From a virus (Duplodnaviria > Heunggongvirae > Uroviricota > Caudoviricetes): 12,106 bases of DNA. The stretch lies in IMG/VR virus record IMGVR_UViG_2744054964_000001; one strand, 5' to 3'. This document shows positions 1,369-9,973 of this stretch, in pieces. The notes under the pieces were generated by a model that was given only the letters and a program-made list of their open reading frames with translations, did no database searches and was not told the DNA's origin. How positions within the stretch are numbered: position 1 is the first letter of the stretch; each line of letters opens with the position of its first letter. The translations under genes and the position numbers were made by a program.

Positions 1369-1444
1369 GCCGATATAGCTCAGTTGGTAGAGCAGCGCAT
1401 TCGTAATGCGAAGGTCGTAGGTTCGACTCCTATTATCGGCACCA
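1369..1444 (+). tRNA. thrW: tRNA-Thr (anticodon CGT), 76 nt including encoded CCA
   Basis: GCCGATATAGCTCAGTTGGTAGAGCAGCGCATTCGTAATGCGAAGGTCGTAGGTTCGACTCCTATTATCGGCACCA: acceptor stem GCCGATA/TATCGGC, D-loop AGTTGGTAG, anticodon loop TTCGTAA, T-loop GGTTCGACTCC, 3' CCA. Position after proA matches thrW. Confidence 0.9.
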
Positions 1445-1609: not shown

Positions 1610-2824
1610 GTGAAACTCAATGCCCGTCAAATAGACACAGCCAAGCCAAAAGAGAAGGCTTACAAGCTGGCCGATGGTGGCGGTTTGTATCTCTTGGTAA
1701 AACCTAATGGAGGTAAATACTGGCGACTTAAATATCGTGTAGCTGGTAAAGAGAAGCTATTGGCACTAGGTGTGTATCCTGAGGTTACTCTAGCCGATGC
1801 GCGAGCTAAACGTGAAGATGCGAAAAGGGGTATCGCTGGTGGTATCGATCCGATGGAAGCGAAACGAGAGGAAAAGATTGCCCGGGAAACGCAGTTAAAC
1901 AACACCTTCAAAGATATTGCCCTTGAGTGGCACAGCAGCAAATTAAAAAAATGGTCTGCTGGTTATGCTTCAGACATCCTCGAAGCCTTCAACAAAGATG
2001 TGTTCCCTTACATTGGCAAAAAACCAATCGCCGAAATCAAACCACTTGAACTTCTGAATGTGCTGCGGCGCATCGAGGGGCGCGGTGCTACAGAAAAAGC
2101 CAAAAAAGTGAGGCAGCGGTGCGGGGAAGTTTTCCGCTATGCAATAGTCACTGGTCGCGCAGAGTATAACCCTGCACCAGACCTTACTAGCGCGATGCAA
2201 GGTCATGAATCTAATCATTACCCTTTCCTTACAGCCAAAGAATTACCTGATTTTTTCAAGGCATTGTCCAGTTACTCAGGAAGCGCATTGGTTGTTATGG
2301 CGGCTCGTCTACTGATTATCACCGGCTTGCGGACTGGCGAACTACGTGGCGCATTATGGGATGAAATTGATTTCAACAAGGCTATCTGGGAGATACCCGC
2401 TTCACGTATGAAAATGCGGCGGCCTCATATTGTGCCATTGTCTGAGCAGGCTCTTTCGCTTATTGGGAAGATTAGAGAAATAACAGGCAATTACCCTCTT
2501 ATGTTTCCCGGGCGCAATGATCCAAGGAAAACAATGAGCGAGGCCAGCATAAACCAAGTGTTTAAGCGCATTGGCTACGCTGGACGTGTAACTGGTCATG
2601 GGTTCCGGCACACTATGAGTACGATTTTGCATGAGCAGGGCTATAACACTGCGTGGATAGAAACGCAGCTCGCTCACGTTGATAAGAACTCAATTCGTGG
2701 CACATACAACCATGCGCAATATCTGGATGGAAGGCGGGAGATGCTTCAATGGTATGCCGACTATATGGATTCTCTCGAGCATGGCGGAAATGTGGTGCAT
2801 ATGGTGTTTGAAAAACACGCATGA
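1610..2824 (+). CDS. int: Site-specific tyrosine recombinase, P4-family integrase (GTG start)
   Basis: 404-aa ORF; N-terminus KPKEKAYKLADGGGLYLLVKPNGGKYWRLKYR is typical of P4-type integrases (DUF4102-like arm-binding domain); C-terminal catalytic region with LRTGELRG, HGFRHT and a C-terminal Tyr; SD GGAGG at 1596-1600; immediately downstream of a tRNA. Confidence 0.9.
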   Translation: MKLNARQIDTAKPKEKAYKLADGGGLYLLVKPNGGKYWRLKYRVAGKEKLLALGVYPEVTLADARAKREDAKRGIAGGIDPMEAKREEKIARETQLNNTFKDIALEWHSSKLKKWSAGYASDILEAFNKDVFPYIGKKPIAEIKPLELLNVLRRIEGRGATEKAKKVRQRCGEVFRYAIVTGRAEYNPAPDLTSAMQGHESNHYPFLTAKELPDFFKALSSYSGSALVVMAARLLIITGLRTGELRGALWDEIDFNKAIWEIPASRMKMRRPHIVPLSEQALSLIGKIREITGNYPLMFPGRNDPRKTMSEASINQVFKRIGYAGRVTGHGFRHTMSTILHEQGYNTAWIETQLAHVDKNSIRGTYNHAQYLDGRREMLQWYADYMDSLEHGGNVVHMVFEKHA

Positions 2825-3475: not shown

Positions 3476-3679
3476 ATGGCTAATTACAATTCATTAATTC
3501 GTCTCTCTGAAGTTCAAAGGCGAACTGGTTATAGCAAAGCATGGATTTATCGTCTTATTAGTCAGGGGAGGTTCCCTAAACAGGTAAAAATTGGAAGTCG
3601 GGCAATTGCTTTTGTTGAGTCTGAAATAGATGAATGGATTGAGAAGTGTATATTAGAATCTAGAGACGAGGTGGCCTGA
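3476..3679 (+). CDS. alpA: AlpA/Vis-family phage transcriptional regulator (excisionase-like DNA-binding protein)
   Basis: 67-aa ORF; sequence LSEVQRRTGYSKAWIYRLISQGRFPKQVKIGSRAIAFVESEIDEWI matches the AlpA family helix-turn-helix pattern; stop overlaps the start of the next ORF (TGATG). Confidence 0.85.
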   Translation: MANYNSLIRLSEVQRRTGYSKAWIYRLISQGRFPKQVKIGSRAIAFVESEIDEWIEKCILESRDEVA

Positions 3680-4110
3680 TGGAAAAGAAAAACCGCCCAT
3701 TACAGGCGGCTAACTCAGATATTCGCACGTCTGATATTACGCCGACCACCAGCCCGGTACAAGTACCTAGGCGTACCCCAAAGAAACACCGCGCCCGCGT
3801 CTATATGCTGCGTACTGGTATAGAGGGATGGACAGAAAACGACATTCTTCGCTACTGCCGTCTGTCTTCTGGTCGTAACTATGCAACAGAGTTAGAACGC
3901 CAGCTTGGAATCACTCTGGAGCGTATCGACGAAAAGAATCCTGATGGTATCGGAACACACCTTCGCTACCGTTTCTCCTGCCGTGGTGATGTTCTGAAAG
4001 TGATCACTCATGTTAACCATCTTGCGAACATAAATGATCACAACGGACTTTCTCAGCAGGAAATTGCCGACATTCTGAAACTCTACCCGGACGCGTTTAA
4101 CGCCGCCTAA
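3679..4110 (+). CDS. Hypothetical protein, 143 aa, translationally coupled to alpA
   Basis: ATG overlaps the alpA stop; SD GAGGTGG at about 3667-3673; basic N-terminal region (PRRTPKKHRAR); no family recognised by eye. Confidence 0.6.
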   Translation: MEKKNRPLQAANSDIRTSDITPTTSPVQVPRRTPKKHRARVYMLRTGIEGWTENDILRYCRLSSGRNYATELERQLGITLERIDEKNPDGIGTHLRYRFSCRGDVLKVITHVNHLANINDHNGLSQQEIADILKLYPDAFNAA

Positions 4111-4122
4111 CGGAGACTGAAA

Positions 4123-4956
4123 ATGAACATCGAAAAAAGCAGATTAATTTCTGAGGCCGCCCCTCATCTGAACGCCTATCAGGGAACAATTAACGGTAAT
4201 GAATTTGCCGCAATTGTCCCGGTTATTCCTGGTCATATCGGTGGGCGTGAAACCAATATTGTTAGCGCAAAAGCGTTACACAAAGCGTTGGGCGTGGGAA
4301 AAGACTTCTCTACATGGATCGCTGATCGCATCTCTGAATATGACTTCACCATTGGGCACGATTACTCAGTCCATAAAACAATTTCCCCAAATCTGGGGAA
4401 AAGCCCGAATGGCGCGGCTTACAGCAAGATTAAACAGTCTGGCAGACCCGGCAAAGACTATCTGTTAAGTGTCGGAATGGCGAAAGAACTGGCAATGATC
4501 GAACGCAATGATCAGGGGCGTGCTATCCGTCGTTATTTCATCCAGTGCGAGGAAGAATTACAGCGTAGCGTGCCTGAAATCGCCGCCCGCTATCGTCGCC
4601 AGCTAAAAGCCCGTATCAGTGCCGCAAACAACTTTAAGCCAATGTGCGATGCGCTGAATATGGCCCGTGCCGAGATGGGTAAAGCGACGCAGCAGCGCCA
4701 CTACAGCAACGAGAGCAACATGATCGCCCGTATCGTGCTGGGTGGCATGACGGCGAAGCAGTGGGCGCAGGCAAATGGCATTACTGGCGAACCACGGGAC
4801 AGCATGAACGCAGCACAGCTTGAACACCTCGCCTATCTCGAAAGCACCAATATCACGTTAATTGATATGGGCATGGAATATGAGCAGCGCAAAGGAGAAC
4901 TCACCCGCCTGTCGCAACGCTGGCTCGCTAAACGTCTGGAGGTAAACCATGCGTAA
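4123..4956 (+). CDS. Phage antirepressor-like protein (AntA/AntB / KilAC-type, Bro-N-like N-terminal domain)
   Basis: 277-aa ORF; motifs SAKALHKALGVGKDFSTWIADRISEYDF and DYLLSVGMAKELAMIERNDQGRAIRRYFIQCEEEL match the pattern recalled for AntA/KilAC antirepressors; SD GGAG upstream. Confidence 0.7.
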   Translation: MNIEKSRLISEAAPHLNAYQGTINGNEFAAIVPVIPGHIGGRETNIVSAKALHKALGVGKDFSTWIADRISEYDFTIGHDYSVHKTISPNLGKSPNGAAYSKIKQSGRPGKDYLLSVGMAKELAMIERNDQGRAIRRYFIQCEEELQRSVPEIAARYRRQLKARISAANNFKPMCDALNMARAEMGKATQQRHYSNESNMIARIVLGGMTAKQWAQANGITGEPRDSMNAAQLEHLAYLESTNITLIDMGMEYEQRKGELTRLSQRWLAKRLEVNHA

Positions 4957-5131
4957 CCATAATCCGATGCCGGGAAGCCGTTACAAGGATTCGCACGGGG
5001 CTGTAGTGACCGTTGAGCGCGTCGAGCATAACCGAGTGACCTTTTACCGCGAGGGCTATCAGTCGCCATGTGTTCAGCCTTTGGAGAGATTCGTTAATGA
5101 GTTCGTGGAGGTGCGCCGTGATACTGAATGA
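4949..5131 (+). CDS. Small DUF4222-like protein (60 aa)
   Basis: ATG overlaps the upstream stop (ATGCGTAA); SD GGAGGT at 4937-4942; sequence PGSRYKDSHGAVVTVERVEHNRVTFYREGYQSPCVQPLERF resembles DUF4222 small proteins common in enterobacterial P4-like islands. Confidence 0.55.
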   Translation: MRNHNPMPGSRYKDSHGAVVTVERVEHNRVTFYREGYQSPCVQPLERFVNEFVEVRRDTE

Positions 5132-5171
5132 ACCTGCCGCCCAGAAAGAAGCCTTTAATCTGGCTGGCATG

Positions 5172-5187
5172 TTGTCAAAAGTTGACA
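5172..5187. promoter_or_regulatory. Operator-like inverted repeat TTGTCA-AAAG-TTGACA (contains a perfect -35 hexamer TTGACA)
   Basis: Read directly; a near-identical site TTGTCA-AAAC-TTGACA recurs at 10615-10630; no strong -10 hexamer at canonical spacing. Confidence 0.35.
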
Positions 5188-5418
5188 TCTGCAACCTTAC
5201 AAAACCTGATATTGATACCGCAGCGCCTGGAGTTCCGTTACCAGTACGCGAGGCGCTTACCCTCAACAAAAAGATGGTGAGCCGTGCACAGGGAAAACTC
5301 TTAAAGGGTTACGGTTTTATCTGGTATGACCACCTAGCAGAGAAAAGCTGTTATAGTCCAAGCGTTGCTGCAAAATCAGCAACCGGGCGTGAGAACCCGA
5401 ACACACTCAGGGCGACAC

Positions 5419-5441
5419 AGACGCCGAAAGCGTCTTTTTTT
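5419..5441 (+). terminator. Rho-independent terminator (AGACGC-CGAAA-GCGTCT followed by T7)
   Basis: 6-bp GC-rich stem, 5-nt loop, run of seven T; preceded by a second hairpin GTTGCTG-CAAAAT-CAGCAAC at 5364-5383. Confidence 0.5.
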
Positions 5442-5507
5442 GTGTCCATTCACTACGCACATCAAATCAGCGGACTTACCCGTACTGTATCAATGGTGGC
5501 GTTAGTG

Positions 5508-5622
5508 GGGCTACGTTCGCGTAGGCCGGTTTCCTTTGTGTCCGGTATTCTCACCCCCGCTGACGTCACCGCCAATTCAGAGCGTGAGAACTCAGGCGGT
5601 GACTCCTTAAACACAAAGGAGG
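5508..5622 (+). promoter_or_regulatory. Candidate C4/CI-type antisense RNA or RBS-masking leader upstream of the icd-like gene
   Basis: Hairpin CTACG-TTCG-CGTAG (5511-5524); CCGG-TTTCCTTTGTGT-CCGG stem-loop (5526-5545) whose loop TCCTTTGTGT (5532-5541) is the exact reverse complement of ACACAAAGGA (5611-5620), which overlaps the SD AAGGAGG (5616-5622) of the icd-like ORF; second copy TTTGTGTCC at 5439-5447. Confidence 0.35.
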
Positions 5623-5630
5623 CTGCCATA

Positions 5631-5822
5631 ATGGCTACTACCCCTACCCAAAAACCGCAATTTATCTGGATTATCGCAGCAGTTCGCCGCGATATGCCGA
5701 CAATTACCGCCAAAATTCACCATATCGCCGCAGAGACTGAGCAGGAAGCCCGCCGCATTCTGGCGCGGGATCACGTTTGCTTTTTTGCCGGACGTATTCG
5801 CACAGGGGGCGCACATGCTTAA
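5631..5822 (+). CDS. Icd-like small protein (putative host cell-division inhibitor, P1 Icd / P4 Kil-like)
   Basis: 63-aa ORF with strong SD AAGGAGG 9 nt upstream; pattern F-W...A..RR ... AAETEQEARRILA ... FFAGRIR matches the remembered Icd-like family signature. This is the 3' part of a 250-aa track ORF (5070-5822) that is otherwise not credible. Confidence 0.6.
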   Translation: MATTPTQKPQFIWIIAAVRRDMPTITAKIHHIAAETEQEARRILARDHVCFFAGRIRTGGAHA

Positions 5823-5994
5823 TTACTTCCGTGTTGCAGGATGCGCCACCGCCAGGAGCGGCGAATTAGTCGAGTTCGTTTATATCGTTGACGCCCGCAG
5901 CGCGATCAGCGCCAAAGCTGAGGCGCTAAATCAGGCCAGAAATGAACGCCTTTCCCACATCCAGATTACCCGCGTTCGTGAGGTGGCGGCATGA
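5815..5994 (+). CDS. Hypothetical small protein (59 aa)
   Basis: ATG at 5815 with SD AGGGGG at 5804-5809; overlaps the icd-like stop by 8 nt; stop overlaps the next start (ATGA). The track's 5785 start is a TTG without SD. Confidence 0.5.
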   Translation: MLNYFRVAGCATARSGELVEFVYIVDARSAISAKAEALNQARNERLSHIQITRVREVAA

Positions 5995-6305
5995 GCATGT
6001 ATGACGATTTAGTGTCCTGCAAATTTGATGGTTGTACACCTGATGATCTGAACGGAATTGAGAGCCGCGCCAGTGATGCCGTGGATGATTTAATGCTGGG
6101 CGTAAGTGCCATTGGTAGCCTCATGTTCTGGGCGGCTGGTAGCGATGGCTACCCGGAGGAAATCGCTAAGGCTGATATGTACAGATTAGGCGCAATGCTG
6201 GGACATATCGGAGAATTTGCGCGGGCGCTGAACGATATCGCTGCAAACGCCGCATTCTTGCGCTCAATCAGTGAAAAAGAAGCCAAAGGGAGGGCGGGCA
6301 AATGA
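5991..6305 (+). CDS. Hypothetical protein (104 aa)
   Basis: SD GAGGTGG upstream; ATGA start/stop overlaps on both sides (translational coupling). Confidence 0.6.
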   Translation: MSMYDDLVSCKFDGCTPDDLNGIESRASDAVDDLMLGVSAIGSLMFWAAGSDGYPEEIAKADMYRLGAMLGHIGEFARALNDIAANAAFLRSISEKEAKGRAGK

Positions 6306-6565
6306 ACATAACTACCATCTATCGCCACCCGGCAGAGCTGGAAGCCGAAGCGATGTTATCCCGCGAGCAGGCTTACCCGGATGATTTTACGCTGGCAGAC
6401 CGAACAGCAGAACGCATGACCCGCGCCCGCAATGGGCTGGCTCACGTTATGACCGATTTATTACCACTCCTCGAAGTTGAGCAAGCAGCCATCGCGTATT
6501 GCTGGCTGAGTAAAGTCCTGACGATTGTCGATATAGCCAGAATTGATGCGGAGGGCAGCGCATGA
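6302..6565 (+). CDS. Hypothetical protein (87 aa)
   Basis: SD AAAGGGAGGG upstream; ATGA overlaps with both neighbours. Confidence 0.6.
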   Translation: MNITTIYRHPAELEAEAMLSREQAYPDDFTLADRTAERMTRARNGLAHVMTDLLPLLEVEQAAIAYCWLSKVLTIVDIARIDAEGSA

Positions 6566-7188
6566 GCAACGCACCGACCATTAAATCGGGAAATGCCGAC
6601 TTATTACACGCCGAAGCCACACCGCACGGCGTCAATATCATGACCCGCAATGATGCCGGGGGATATGAGCAGGTTGCTCTTATCAGCTACGAGAGCGCCG
6701 TGAACGGCCTTGACGCCGGAGAGTACGACGATAAGCCAGATATCGGATACGCCATTCATTTTGCCGTTGCTGATGGCGGGGCGCGTGGCTGGTTCGACTT
6801 CACCGCGCAGCATAACGTCACTATGTGGCGCTGGCTGATTGCTGCGACGTTCATTTCTGAGATGAAGCGCGAAAACGGCACAACCACGGTAACTGAGTCT
6901 GACGGCACTTCATCGCAGGTGGCGATTTACTCCAATGGCACGGCGGGGATTGTGGTTTACCCGTTCGCGGAACGTCTGGCGATGGCTAACAACATGGAGG
7001 GCGCAATGGTTGAGCGCTACGGCATTGAGCAGGGAACAGCGAACGCCATTGTTTTTTATCAGGCCATGATCGACACGGAGCGCGGCGAGTTGACCCCGTT
7101 CGGGCGTGAAACGCTTGCTGAACTTCACAACAGCTTTATAGCTGAACTGGATGAAAACGGCTGGCCTGAAATGCCGCTGGCGCACTGA
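6562..7188 (+). CDS. Hypothetical protein (208 aa)
   Basis: SD GCGGAGGG upstream; ATGA overlap with the upstream ORF; coding-like composition; no family recognised. Confidence 0.65.
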   Translation: MSNAPTIKSGNADLLHAEATPHGVNIMTRNDAGGYEQVALISYESAVNGLDAGEYDDKPDIGYAIHFAVADGGARGWFDFTAQHNVTMWRWLIAATFISEMKRENGTTTVTESDGTSSQVAIYSNGTAGIVVYPFAERLAMANNMEGAMVERYGIEQGTANAIVFYQAMIDTERGELTPFGRETLAELHNSFIAELDENGWPEMPLAH

Positions 7189-7197
7189 GGGGGCGAC

Positions 7198-7539
7198 ATG
7201 ATTACTAAAAATTTCCGACTTAATGCGCTGGCGAATAAGTATGCGTCGGCACTGTATAACCACATTACGGCTATCAATGGTGGCAATTACTTCATGGTTG
7301 ACGCGGCAGGCCAGCAAATCCGTGTGGAGATCGTCAATGGAGTAAAAGGCGTTCGCAGCCTGATCGATAGCTACACACTGGCAGCCATGAAAGTGTCCTA
7401 CCCGCAGTGGGAAACCGTGGGGGTCGAGCTTCTTGAGCGTTGCGTCACTAAGGACGGATTGACTGACGTCGGGCGCGAGATATGGCAAAGCATGGTTAAA
7501 GACATGGGCGCGACAGTGGCAGGAGGCAATCATGCGTAA
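7198..7539 (+). CDS. Hypothetical protein (113 aa)
   Basis: SD GAGGGGG upstream; stop overlaps the primase start (ATGCGTAA). Confidence 0.6.
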   Translation: MITKNFRLNALANKYASALYNHITAINGGNYFMVDAAGQQIRVEIVNGVKGVRSLIDSYTLAAMKVSYPQWETVGVELLERCVTKDGLTDVGREIWQSMVKDMGATVAGGNHA

Positions 7540-9973
7540 TATCGACCTTATCCGCGAAGTGACCAGTGCCGCCGCCGGGCGCTGGCCTTATGTGCTGGCT
7601 GGATTGTCTATCGACGTGCCTGATTCATCGCGCCGCCATTCTCCATGCCCTGCATGTGGTGGAAAAGACCGTTTCAGATTCGACGACAACGGGCGCGGTA
7701 GCTTTATCTGCAACCAGTGTGGCGCTGGTGACGGGCTGGATTTAATCAAGCGGGTTAACAACTGCGACACTACGGAGGCGGCACAGCTTGCCGCTGACGT
7801 GCTGGGTATTGATTACCGGGCAGCGCAAACCGACCCGGTGGCAGCGAGCCATAGAAGAGAGCAACTGGAAGCTGACCGCCAGCAGCGTGAGCAGGAGCGC
7901 CAGAAACAGGCAGCAGAGGATGCAGAGCAGCGAAGGGCTACGTTTGCCCGTCTGTATGCCGGAATGCGCCAGAGTGCCACACAGGGCGAATCTGATTACC
8001 TGCAATCAAAAGGGCTGACCGGGTTTAAATATCCGGTAATGCCGGATGGTTCGTTATTGCTGGAGCTGGTGGACGAATCCGGCGCAGTGGCAGCAGCGCA
8101 AACCATTACACCGCAGGGAGAGAAGCGACTCCTGACAGGTTCAGCAAAGCGCGGGGCATATCACGCCGTAAACGCGCCAGAATCGCCGCAGAGCGTTTTA
8201 ATTGCCGAGGGGCTGGCGACGGCCCTTTCAGTTCACCTGATGCGCCCGGACGCGCTGGCAGTGGCAGCAATTGACGCGGGCAACCTGCTACCCGTTGCCG
8301 AAGTGATGCGCCGGAAACACCCGCAGTCGCAAATTATCATTGCCGCAGATAACGACCACCAGCAGGACGAACAGGCGAACACGGGCAAAGATGCCGCAGA
8401 GAAAGCCGCCTTATCCGTGGCTGGCTGGGTGGCGCTGCCGCCGACAGACTATAAAGCCGACTGGGACGACTACCGCCAGCAAAACGGGCTGGAAGTCGCT
8501 ACGGCTGCGTTTAACGATTCGATGTACCAGATTCAGGGGGAAGCCGTGAAACCACAACTACAGGCCATTGCGGGCGGTAAATCCCGCCGTAAAGCCGAAG
8601 TCGGAGATATTGCACAAATGGCAGCCAGCCAGAAAGCGCGGTTGCTTTCATCTCGATGGGATATGTTGGCGGTTAACCCTGATAGTGGCACTGTTTACTG
8701 TTACGAATCTGGCGTATGGGAGAAGCTACCAGACAGTGAATTAGAAAGGGTTATGGTGGCAATTTTCGACGAGCACGAAGCCCACTACACCGAAAAGGGG
8801 ATTAAATCGGTTGTCGCAACCATGAAGCTGCAAATACCGGTAATTGGTGAGCGGAGCGGGGATCTGATTGGTTTTGATAACGGCGTTTATGACCTCGCCA
8901 CGCAGACGTTTTCCGCCCATTCGCCGGGTAACTGGCTGATGAACCACAATGGGATCACCTACACCCCGCCAGCGCCGGGGGAAAATATTACCACCAGCGC
9001 CCCCAATTTTACCCGTTGGCTGAATCATGCAACGGCTGGCGACCATCATAAGGCCGAGCGTATCAAAGCAGCCTTGTTTATGGTGCTGGCGAAGCGTCAC
9101 GACTGGCAGCTATTCATTGAGATAACTGGCGAGGGCGGCAGTGGGAAATCCGTATTCAGCAGCATAGCAACCACGCTGGCAGGTGAACACAACACCGCCA
9201 GCGGTAGCATGATGACGCTGGACACCGCACGGGGACGAGCGCAGTTCGTAGGAAAAAGCCTGATTATTATGCCTGACCAGACCCGCTATGTTGGAGAGGG
9301 TGCGGGGATTAAGGCCATTACGGGCGGCGATCCGGTAGAGATTGATGGGAAATATGAAAAGCAGTTCACAACCGTGCTAAATGCCGTTGTTATGGCAACC
9401 AATAACGAGCCGATGACATTCACGGAGCGAAACGGGGGCATTGCCCGCCGCCGCGTGATATTCCCGTTTAATAACCCGGTATCAGACGCAGACAAAGACC
9501 CGGATTTAACCGCAAAAATCAGGCGAGAAATCCCGGTGATTATCCGCCACCTGCTAACCACCTTTGCCGACCAGAACAAAGCAAAGGCACTATTACTAGA
9601 GCAGCGCGATTCGCAGGAGGCGCTAGAGGTTAAACGCGGCACAGATCCGGTTGTCGATATGTGTGCGGCGCTTTTTTTCATGAACGAACCCAAAGGCATG
9701 ATGATGGGCGGAGGTACATGGGCAGGCCAGCCAGAGCCGAGGACATATCTTTATCATCTTTATCTGGCGTTTATGGAGTATCACGGCCTGGGTAAACCGC
9801 TTTCCGTCAATAAGTTTTCACGCGCCATAAAATCAGCAGCAAAAGAGTACCGAGCCAGCTACCTGACGAGAAGCATTAACGGCAGAGCGCAAACCAACGT
9901 TGGCTATAACGAGAAGGCTGAGGAGTTCATGCCACGCGCTTACGGCGTGGAGAGCGGGCAGAGTGATGATTGA
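7532..9973 (+). CDS. P4 alpha-type bifunctional DNA primase / helicase
   Basis: 813 aa; N-terminal Cys4 zinc ribbon (CPACGGKDRF...CNQCGAGDG); Toprim-like acidic motifs (LIAEGLATA, IIAADNDHQQDE); C-terminal P-loop GEGGSGKS (nt 9128-9151) of D5_N/SF3-type helicase; SD AGGAGG upstream. Confidence 0.9.
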   Translation: MRNIDLIREVTSAAAGRWPYVLAGLSIDVPDSSRRHSPCPACGGKDRFRFDDNGRGSFICNQCGAGDGLDLIKRVNNCDTTEAAQLAADVLGIDYRAAQTDPVAASHRREQLEADRQQREQERQKQAAEDAEQRRATFARLYAGMRQSATQGESDYLQSKGLTGFKYPVMPDGSLLLELVDESGAVAAAQTITPQGEKRLLTGSAKRGAYHAVNAPESPQSVLIAEGLATALSVHLMRPDALAVAAIDAGNLLPVAEVMRRKHPQSQIIIAADNDHQQDEQANTGKDAAEKAALSVAGWVALPPTDYKADWDDYRQQNGLEVATAAFNDSMYQIQGEAVKPQLQAIAGGKSRRKAEVGDIAQMAASQKARLLSSRWDMLAVNPDSGTVYCYESGVWEKLPDSELERVMVAIFDEHEAHYTEKGIKSVVATMKLQIPVIGERSGDLIGFDNGVYDLATQTFSAHSPGNWLMNHNGITYTPPAPGENITTSAPNFTRWLNHATAGDHHKAERIKAALFMVLAKRHDWQLFIEITGEGGSGKSVFSSIATTLAGEHNTASGSMMTLDTARGRAQFVGKSLIIMPDQTRYVGEGAGIKAITGGDPVEIDGKYEKQFTTVLNAVVMATNNEPMTFTERNGGIARRRVIFPFNNPVSDADKDPDLTAKIRREIPVIIRHLLTTFADQNKAKALLLEQRDSQEALEVKRGTDPVVDMCAALFFMNEPKGMMMGGGTWAGQPEPRTYLYHLYLAFMEYHGLGKPLSVNKFSRAIKSAAKEYRASYLTRSINGRAQTNVGYNEKAEEFMPRAYGVESGQSDD

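Follow-up and report, generated by a model that had tools for sequence, protein, structure and literature searches.

The window analysed here, i.e. the whole stretch of 12,106 nucleotides, is Escherichia coli-like chromosomal DNA with the order proA, tRNA-Thr (CGU), integrase and island, and the same proA/tRNA-Thr/integrase order is annotated in E. coli ZF34. A 601-nt query (positions 5300-5900) matched 476 E. coli records, with 98.8% identity in the case of E. coli ZF34. Beyond the integrase, a co-oriented chain of genes runs from alpA, which is followed by a 143-aa ORF, through the genes for an AntA/Bro-type protein and a DUF4222 protein to a 50-aa ORF; starts and stops overlap along this chain, except that 12 nt separate the 143-aa ORF from the AntA gene (Table 1). 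The chain is followed by a long Eta-like ORF, at whose 3' end an Icd/Kil-like gene is nested, and by a second co-oriented chain which ends with a P4-family primase/helicase. The genes downstream of icd had been described as coupled by an earlier, sequence-only reading of this DNA, and this was borne out: the chain extends from 5815 to 9973 with overlapping starts and stops, save for one 9-nt gap that precedes ORF 7198-7539. The PHROG matches of the ORFs in this chain are of unknown function.

Among the scanned ORFs of the window, which ends 2.1 kb past the primase gene and thereby bounds the search for helper-exploitation genes, there was no Pfam, NCBIfam or PHROG match to sid, psu, delta or epsilon; in this respect the window differs from P4, and the same four genes are not listed in the near-identical island of E. 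coli ZF34 either. It may thus be that the island falls short of a complete P4-type satellite and that the switch described below is a relic.

Table 1. Coordinates of the genes, RNA elements and recognition sites discussed in the text.
Feature	Position	Strand	Evidence or remark
tRNA-Thr (CGU), island integration site	1369-1444	+	ARAGORN, Rfam tRNA
Tyrosine integrase	1610-2824	+	Pfam Phage_integrase, Arm-DNA-bind_3, Phage_int_M
Upstream co-oriented chain	3476-5280	+	Pfam, PHROG, ORF coordinates
AlpA	3476-3679	+	
AntA/Bro-type protein	4123-4956	+	Pfam AntA; PHROG anti-repressor
DUF4222	4949-5131	+	
50-aa ORF	5128-5280	+	
Eta-like ORF (plausible start), icd frame, Icd/Kil-like gene nested at 3' end	5274-5822	+	Phage_ASH, open frame
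Putative PLE-like promoter, extended -10 TGtTATAGT	5349-5357	+	start predicted near G5364
IsrK/seqA-like leader RNA	5364-5440	+	isrK and c4-a1b1 (Rfam)
Leader hairpin 1	5364-5383	+	
Leader hairpin presenting a1	5384-5399	+	
a1 target	5389-5395	+	GUGAGAA, hairpin loop in leader, complementary to a' (7 nt)
b1 target	5400-5412	+	ACACACUCAGGG, degenerate in this element
Intrinsic terminator, 6-bp stem, GAAA-type loop, U7	5419-5440	+	terminator scan, isrK model, P4 conservation
C4/CI antisense RNA	5489-5576	+	Rfam, MFE fold, co-variation
C4 acceptor-like outer stem, 17 bp	5494-5510 with 5555-5571	+	
C4 hairpin 1, UUCG loop	5511-5524	+	
C4 hairpin 2	5525-5546	+	
b' recognition loop	5530-5541	+	UUUCCUUUGUGU, 12 nt
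a' recognition sequence	5548-5554	+	UUCUCAC, single-stranded junction of C4
3' CCA after C4 outer stem	5572-5574	+	
a2 target	5584-5590	+	GUGAGAA, complementary to a' (7 nt)
c2 segment	5595-5603	+	GGCGGUGAC, complementary to 5565-5573 (C4 stem 3' strand + CC)
b2 target	5611-5625	+	ACACAAAGGA, perfect to 5620, G-U extension to 5625
Icd/Kil-like gene, 63 aa	5631-5822	+	NF033153; P4 Kil similarity
Downstream chain	5815-5994, 5991-6305, 6302-6565, 6562-7188, 7198-7539, 7532-9973	+	ORF coordinates
P4-family primase/helicase	7532-9973	+	TIGR01613, Zn_Ribbon_Prim, Toprim_3

The icd-like gene matches NCBIfam NF033153 with 73.5 bits (threshold 25), and its product is 41% identical to the 65-aa Kil protein of P4, so that the identity first proposed for it holds; its ATG, however, lies at 5631 and not at 5632 as originally placed. 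Upstream of this ATG, 197 codons of the icd frame are free of stops, and the conceptual protein matches Pfam Phage_ASH (75.5 bits) over a segment corresponding to nucleotides 5352-5654, i.e. to the RNA module itself. A plausible start of the Eta-like ORF is the ATG at 5274, in which case its beginning would overlap the stop codon (TGA, 5278-5280) of the ORF before it. In the RefSeq/PGAP annotation of a near-identical E. coli copy, the region is covered by one long 217-aa "Icd-like" CDS, without any RNA feature. The possibility that the long ORF is purely an annotation artefact, with the PGAP CDS over-extended, was considered and rejected on account of the Phage_ASH match and of the eta/kil nesting known from P4, where kil is nested in eta, a constitutive promoter is internal to eta, and Kil is the short product (PMC10111431). 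When an upstream promoter leads to translation of full-length Eta, termination is prevented in P4 (PMC10111431).

The C4 antisense RNA suggested by the sequence-only reading was recognized by Rfam (RF01695) at 5489-5576 with 76.9 bits against a gathering threshold of 45, the match spanning model positions 1-87 of 87. Folding of the isolated C4 segment gave a minimum free energy of -41.9 kcal/mol (z = -4.75) and the same structure as the model, in which the TTCG-loop hairpin already pointed out at 5511-5524 is hairpin 1. RNAs of the C4 family are cut from a longer transcript, and in P1 and P4 it is RNase P that makes the 5' cut. The scan of the whole window with Rfam returned two further matches upstream of C4, namely isrK (RF01394; 68.7 bits, gathering threshold 50) at 5364-5440 and c4-a1b1 (54.3 bits, gathering threshold 46.7) at 5351-5403. 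Matches to isrK and C4 were also obtained in P4, in the P1-like RCS47, in the lambdoid mEp460 and in 10 further loci. The intrinsic terminator previously located at 5419-5435 plus a T-run was found again by a terminator scan.

It should be noted that the promoter of this transcription unit is putative. The -10 sequence TATAGT annotated in the P4 record X02534 aligns with positions 5352-5357 of the window, and A5353 and T5357 do not vary among the 30 aligned loci; the assignment of a PLE-like promoter rests on this homology and this invariance. A canonical sigma-70 promoter was discarded, as the promoter scan reported neither a canonical sigma-70 site nor a canonical -35, and only a TG-extended -10 was present. 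The -35 of P4 is not conserved in the window, which has the TG-extended -10 instead. With promoter, leader and Icd/Kil-like gene included, the functional unit extends from about 5349 to 5822; the stretch from 5419 to 5630 that was first singled out lies within it and is too narrow.

The recognition sites are named here according to the convention for P1, in which b2 is the site over the ribosome binding site (RBS). The 10-nt complementarity at the centre of the sequence-only reading is exact: as checked by script, TCCTTTGTGT (5532-5541) is the reverse complement of ACACAAAGGA (5611-5620), and each of them occurs once in the 12.1-kb window. G-U pairs lengthen the b'/b2 duplex to 15 bp (5527-5541 with 5611-5625), with a predicted energy of -20.2 kcal/mol. 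The 10-mer is indeed displayed in a hairpin loop, closed by the stem GCCGG/CCGGU (5525-5529 with 5542-5546), and the mean unpaired probability over the b' loop (5530-5541) is 0.91. Its target overlaps, as proposed, the Shine-Dalgarno sequence AAGGAGG (5616-5622), 8 nt 5' of the ATG at 5631. A complement to the loop of at least 10 nt within 130 nt downstream was obtained in 19 of 20,000 shuffles.

A second recognition pair, overlooked in the earlier account, is formed by a' with a1 and a2. The a' sequence has an unpaired probability of 0.999 and finds its 7-nt complement once in a hairpin loop of the leader and once upstream of b2. The fourth site, b1, is degenerate: only 5 of 9 pairs with b' can form in register (-8.2 kcal/mol), while another locus (L038), which has the same b' loop, carries a perfect b1 (ACACAAAGG). 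This may make the seqA-type interaction weaker in this element. The nearby sequence GACACAGA (5414-5421) was tried as b1 and rejected, being part of the terminator stem and having in P4 a counterpart, GACAUAUGA, that is kept despite a different loop.

The sequence TTTGTGTCC at 5439-5447 had also been reported as a copy related to the loop. The copy is real, but it plays no part in the mechanism: its polarity is that of the loop, by which it therefore cannot be bound, and the T-run with GTGTC after the terminator is conserved in P4 and in most of the aligned loci whatever their loop sequence, so that it is not a target. Neither a third target nor a decoy is therefore seen in it: the similarity to the loop is coincidental in this element, and the copy is treated as the terminator tail.

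The closest described relative of the module is the immunity region of P4 (PLE, seqA, CI RNA/seqB, seqC, kil/eta, timm), for whose sites the definitions were taken from its sequence and from papers that cite the primary work. The two are colinear from the -10 sequence TATAGT of PLE to kil, with 76% identity in two pieces, or a mean column identity of 76% over the 613 columns of the alignment; the similarity to P1-like phages is lower (71-72%). P4 has isrK and C4 matches in the same order, a' (UUCUCAC), the a1 hairpin, a2 and the terminator, with its U-run and GUGUC, identical to those of the window, a Kil/Icd-like first gene in an Eta-like ORF, and the P4-family primase downstream. The b specificity, in contrast, is different: the loop is UCCUUUGUGU in the window and UCCUGUGAA in P4, each with a matching b2, and the partners of the P4 loop are UUCACAGGA downstream and UUCACAGG upstream. 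In addition, b1 is perfect (8 nt) in P4 while it is degenerate in the window, the distance from the terminator to CI is 59 nt longer in P4, and the window has four extra genes between alpA and the Eta-like ORF. It has already been published that in P4-like prophages IsrK is equivalent to seqA and C4 to CI (PMC3632133; PMC4825925; PMC10111431). The layout in the window, i.e. seqA/IsrK, CI, seqC, kil and then replication genes, is P4-type, and the region is very probably a P4-type antisense RNA immunity switch, carried by a P4-like island integrated at tRNA-Thr in E. coli.

Whether the complementary segments co-vary in related elements, a point on which the sequence-only reading had made its proposal depend, was examined in loci gathered in three ways. 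Species-representative genomes were scanned for the pattern, which gave 35 loci from Enterobacterales and Pseudomonas; viral contigs were scanned for the same loop; and a search for the Icd protein in viral contigs gave 80 loci. P4, the P1-like RCS47 and the lambdoid mEp460 were added to the set. There were 35 distinct b'/a' combinations, including seven variants of a'. In all 35, a1 and a2 each matched over 7 nt and b2 over 6-10 nt, while b1 was weak (4-6 nt) in about eight, the window being one of them.

Pairing was counted formally in an alignment of 30 sequences. The three internal helices of C4 were 100% paired, with 16 compensatory pairs. The antisense-target helices behaved in the same way: b' with b2 was 86.1% paired (7 of 10 pairs compensatory), a' with a2 98.6% (6 of 7), a1 with a' 100% (6 of 7), and b1 with b' 90.7% (8 of 9). 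When the partners were slid by 1-3 columns, pairing fell to 35-50%, and none of 500 shuffles matched the observed pairing or co-variation score. It follows from the collapse of the slid controls and from the result of the shuffles that the complementary segments do co-vary, and the proposal thus survived the refutation test set for it beforehand. As a side observation, one b' loop was found together with three different a' sequences, and the a and b specificities therefore reassort among elements.

By analogy with P4 and P1, the switch could work as follows. Within the Eta-like ORF, a PLE-like promoter with its -10 at 5352-5357 would be constitutively active and give rise to an untranslated leader, and most transcripts would end at the terminator at 5419-5440, yielding a short RNA of the IsrK/seqA type (about 77 nt). 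Read-through would be needed to produce the precursor of C4, from which the tRNA-like C4/CI RNA (approximately 5494-5574) would be cut out by processing. The mature C4 RNA is predicted to expose b' in the loop of hairpin 2 and a' in the junction, both single-stranded, and these would pair with a2 and b2, which lie shortly before and over the Shine-Dalgarno sequence of icd/kil; their pairing with a1 and b1 in the leader would be poorer. Such pairing would block translation of icd/kil, presumably the first gene to be translated from the PLE-like transcript, and Rho would then terminate the untranslated RNA within icd/kil, so that the coupled downstream genes, including the primase gene, would stay silent and the island quiescent.

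If left untranslated, the Icd/Kil-like gene is a candidate site for termination by Rho. The sequence evidence for a Rho site in the window is an excess of C over G at 5600-5760, with a GC skew down to -0.37 at 5640-5719, and the terminator timm of P4 (X51522, 8365-8209) sits inside kil (PMC3177188). Transcripts from an upstream promoter, on the other hand, would be translated through the Eta-like frame and would be expected to escape this control; the upstream chain is likely to be the counterpart of the PLL-driven, immunity-insensitive transcript of P4, an analogy drawn from PMC10111431.

A different emphasis would follow if the module were mainly an IsrK-type activator as in Gifsy-1, where the short leader RNA acts in trans to open an inactive fold of the read-through transcript and thereby enables downstream translation; the C4 portion would then be mostly a structural partner. 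The match to isrK above the gathering threshold is what this reading expects, as is the predicted fold of the full leader, in which a1-a' and b1-b' pair in cis, with a probability of 0.97 for a1-a', and in which the C4 stem does not form, much as in "structure A" of the Gifsy-1 work (PMC4825925). Gifsy-1 IsrK/orf45 (STnc1160)/anrP shares with the window an isrK followed by a C4-type RNA and the possibility of cis pairing between leader and C4, and an RNA of C4 size (STnc1160) was also detected there (PMC4825925). The activator reading is compatible with the immunity model, because the same elements serve both. However, the degenerate b1 weakens the interaction between leader and C4, and the perfect 10-bp match is directed to b2 at the RBS, as repression predicts. 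The downstream genes, moreover, are unlike orf45-anrP: Gifsy-1 has the antirepressor-like AnrP, the window Icd/Kil and replication genes. Binding of IsrK to Hfq and trans-activation of a read-through mRNA are known only in Gifsy-1 (PMC4825925). Activation as the main function is, on balance, unlikely here.

Far less likely still is a P1-type immI operon, in which the c4 RNA would control icd and, by translational coupling, a downstream ant gene. In P1, the Ant antirepressor inactivates a protein repressor. The immI region of P1/P7 has much in common with the window, namely RF01695, the pairing of a' and b' with a1/b1 upstream and a2/b2 downstream, the position of b2 over the icd RBS, and an Icd-like first gene, and the P1-like RCS47 carries isrK, C4, icd and then ant. 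An AntA-domain protein is even present in the window; its gene, however, lies upstream of the switch, outside the control of the PLE-like promoter, and none of the six genes after icd matched the Ant, AntA, KilA or Bro families in Pfam, NCBIfam or PHROG. As there is no ant gene downstream, the module is P4-type and not P1-type. The C1/Coi context of P1 is also missing, with no C1-like repressor seen in the window, and P1 is a plasmid prophage while the element in the window is an integrated island; the greater similarity to P4 and the P4 primase downstream likewise speak against a P1-type operon. The C4/CI-like immunity logic of the sequence-only reading is thus upheld by Rfam, the P4 alignment, the Icd-like gene and co-variation, but its parallel with the c4-icd-ant layout of P1 is not.

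Finally, it is scarcely conceivable that the region has no RNA function and is simply Eta/Ash-like coding sequence with incidental complementarities: a long ORF does cross it and match Phage_ASH, and PGAP does give one long CDS in the near-identical copy, but double changes at 16 intramolecular and 27 antisense-target pairs, together with the collapse of the slid controls, form a compensatory pattern that protein constraint cannot produce, the RNA features are kept although the frame of the ORF relative to icd is not the same in all loci (of 63 distinct related loci, 95% have an ORF of 93 codons or more across the RNA region, and it shares the icd frame in only 30%), and CI of P4 was established as an RNA by genetics (cited in PMC3632133 and PMC10111431).

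Besides the pairings expected for a P4-type switch, a third helix can form between 5565-5573 and c2 (5595-5603). In the related loci it was 97.4% paired, with 6 of 9 pairs compensatory, against 25-63% when the partners were slid, and no description of it was found in the accessible literature. The helix would loop out a2 and would exclude the acceptor-like stem of mature C4, to the top of which it is nearly equal in energy (-60.0 against -59.7 kcal/mol); in the fold of the full leader it coexists with the a1-a' pairing in cis. It could gate the maturation of C4 by RNase P, or display a2 in a loop in the same manner as a1. That it is a functional switch in the unprocessed transcript is put forward only tentatively, as somewhat doubtful; if true, the third helix, the reassortment of a and b and the degenerate b1 would refine the model of P4/P1 immunity. 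A fourth candidate, pairing of the 5' strand of C4 (5493-5500) with the spacer GCUGCCAU between Shine-Dalgarno and AUG (5622-5629), was rejected: it was 88.7% pairable, without double changes, and shuffles equalled the observed values.

The module is an unexceptional representative of a family described before, and the system is already known. Its discovery value is small, since it is a textbook P4/P1-type module that existing Rfam models are able to catch, and many E. coli genomes carry near-identical copies of it; its practical value lies in annotation. The comparative set, with its 35 a'/b' combinations, provides a clean example of RNA-RNA specificity evolving through matched changes, and the loci also exemplify an RNA module inside a protein-coding frame. 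As regards annotation, the label given to the Icd-like protein in PHROGs is "transcriptional repressor", a legacy of the old cI ORF of P4.

The loop of hairpin 2 of the C4 antisense RNA (b'), UUUCCUUUGUGU, is common to the window (5524-5557) and to two viral contigs, L038 (4403-4773) and L040 (9859-10229), and is coupled in them to three variants of the single-stranded junction segment a', namely UUCUCAC (in the window), UUUCCAC and GUUCCAA. In every case, both the upstream and the downstream targets of a' (a1 and a2) match the respective a' sequence. Because one b' loop thus occurs with three a' sequences, each matched by its own a1 and a2, we infer that the a and b recognition sites reassort independently. 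It should be noted that the upstream target of b' in the window (b1, 5400-5412) is degenerate (ACACACUCAGGG), while L038, whose b' loop is identical, has a perfect b1 (ACACAAAGG); a weak b1 was found in about 8 of the 35 specificity types, i.e. of the distinct a'/b' combinations.

A further helix can be formed by 5565-5573 (the C4 stem's 3' strand and the adjoining CC) with 5595-5603, the segment between a2 and b2, the downstream target of b'. This helix co-varies across the 30 aligned loci (97.4% paired, compensatory pairs at six of nine positions). It cannot form together with the top of the C4 stem, to which it is nearly isoenergetic. No description of it was found in the accessible literature. 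The C4 stem's 5' strand (5493-5500) could form 8 bp with GCUGCCAU (5622-5629), the conserved spacer between the Shine-Dalgarno sequence and the AUG; as both strands are nearly invariant, co-variation speaks neither for nor against this candidate pairing.

The RNA module also lies within a protein-coding frame (see table), and the Pfam Phage_ASH match (nt 5352-5654) corresponds exactly to the non-coding RNA region. Among related loci, the ORF across this region stays open in 95%, and is out of the icd frame in 65%. For E. coli ZF34 (L001, 6370-7023), RefSeq lists no ncRNA feature here; a single 217-aa 'Icd-like' CDS is annotated across the RNA genes. The PHROG label for Icd-like proteins (matches of 5631-5822) is 'transcriptional repressor', which apparently derives from the old annotation of the P4 cI ORF.

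Features adjoining or overlapping the immunity module of the window
Feature	Position	Remarks
AntA/Bro-type anti-repressor-like gene	4123-4956	upstream of immunity module, between alpA and Eta-like ORF
Eta-like ORF	5274-5822	frame open from 5070; icd frame; covers entire RNA module

The AntA/Bro-type gene is absent from ZF34, the closest E. coli relative, and P4 has nothing at this position. The related viral contigs L038 (1277-1345) and L040 (12071-12138) carry the Rfam int-alpA RNA (RF02996) in the interval from int to alpA; none was found in the window at the Rfam gathering threshold.

C4 RNAs are also present in many Pseudomonas genomes (among loci L003-L037, e.g. L004, L027 and L037). Their a' (UUCUCAC) and hairpin-2 stem are identical to those of enterobacterial P4-like elements, but the loops, of 10-11 nt, are shorter, and b2 is located farther downstream, at about +70.
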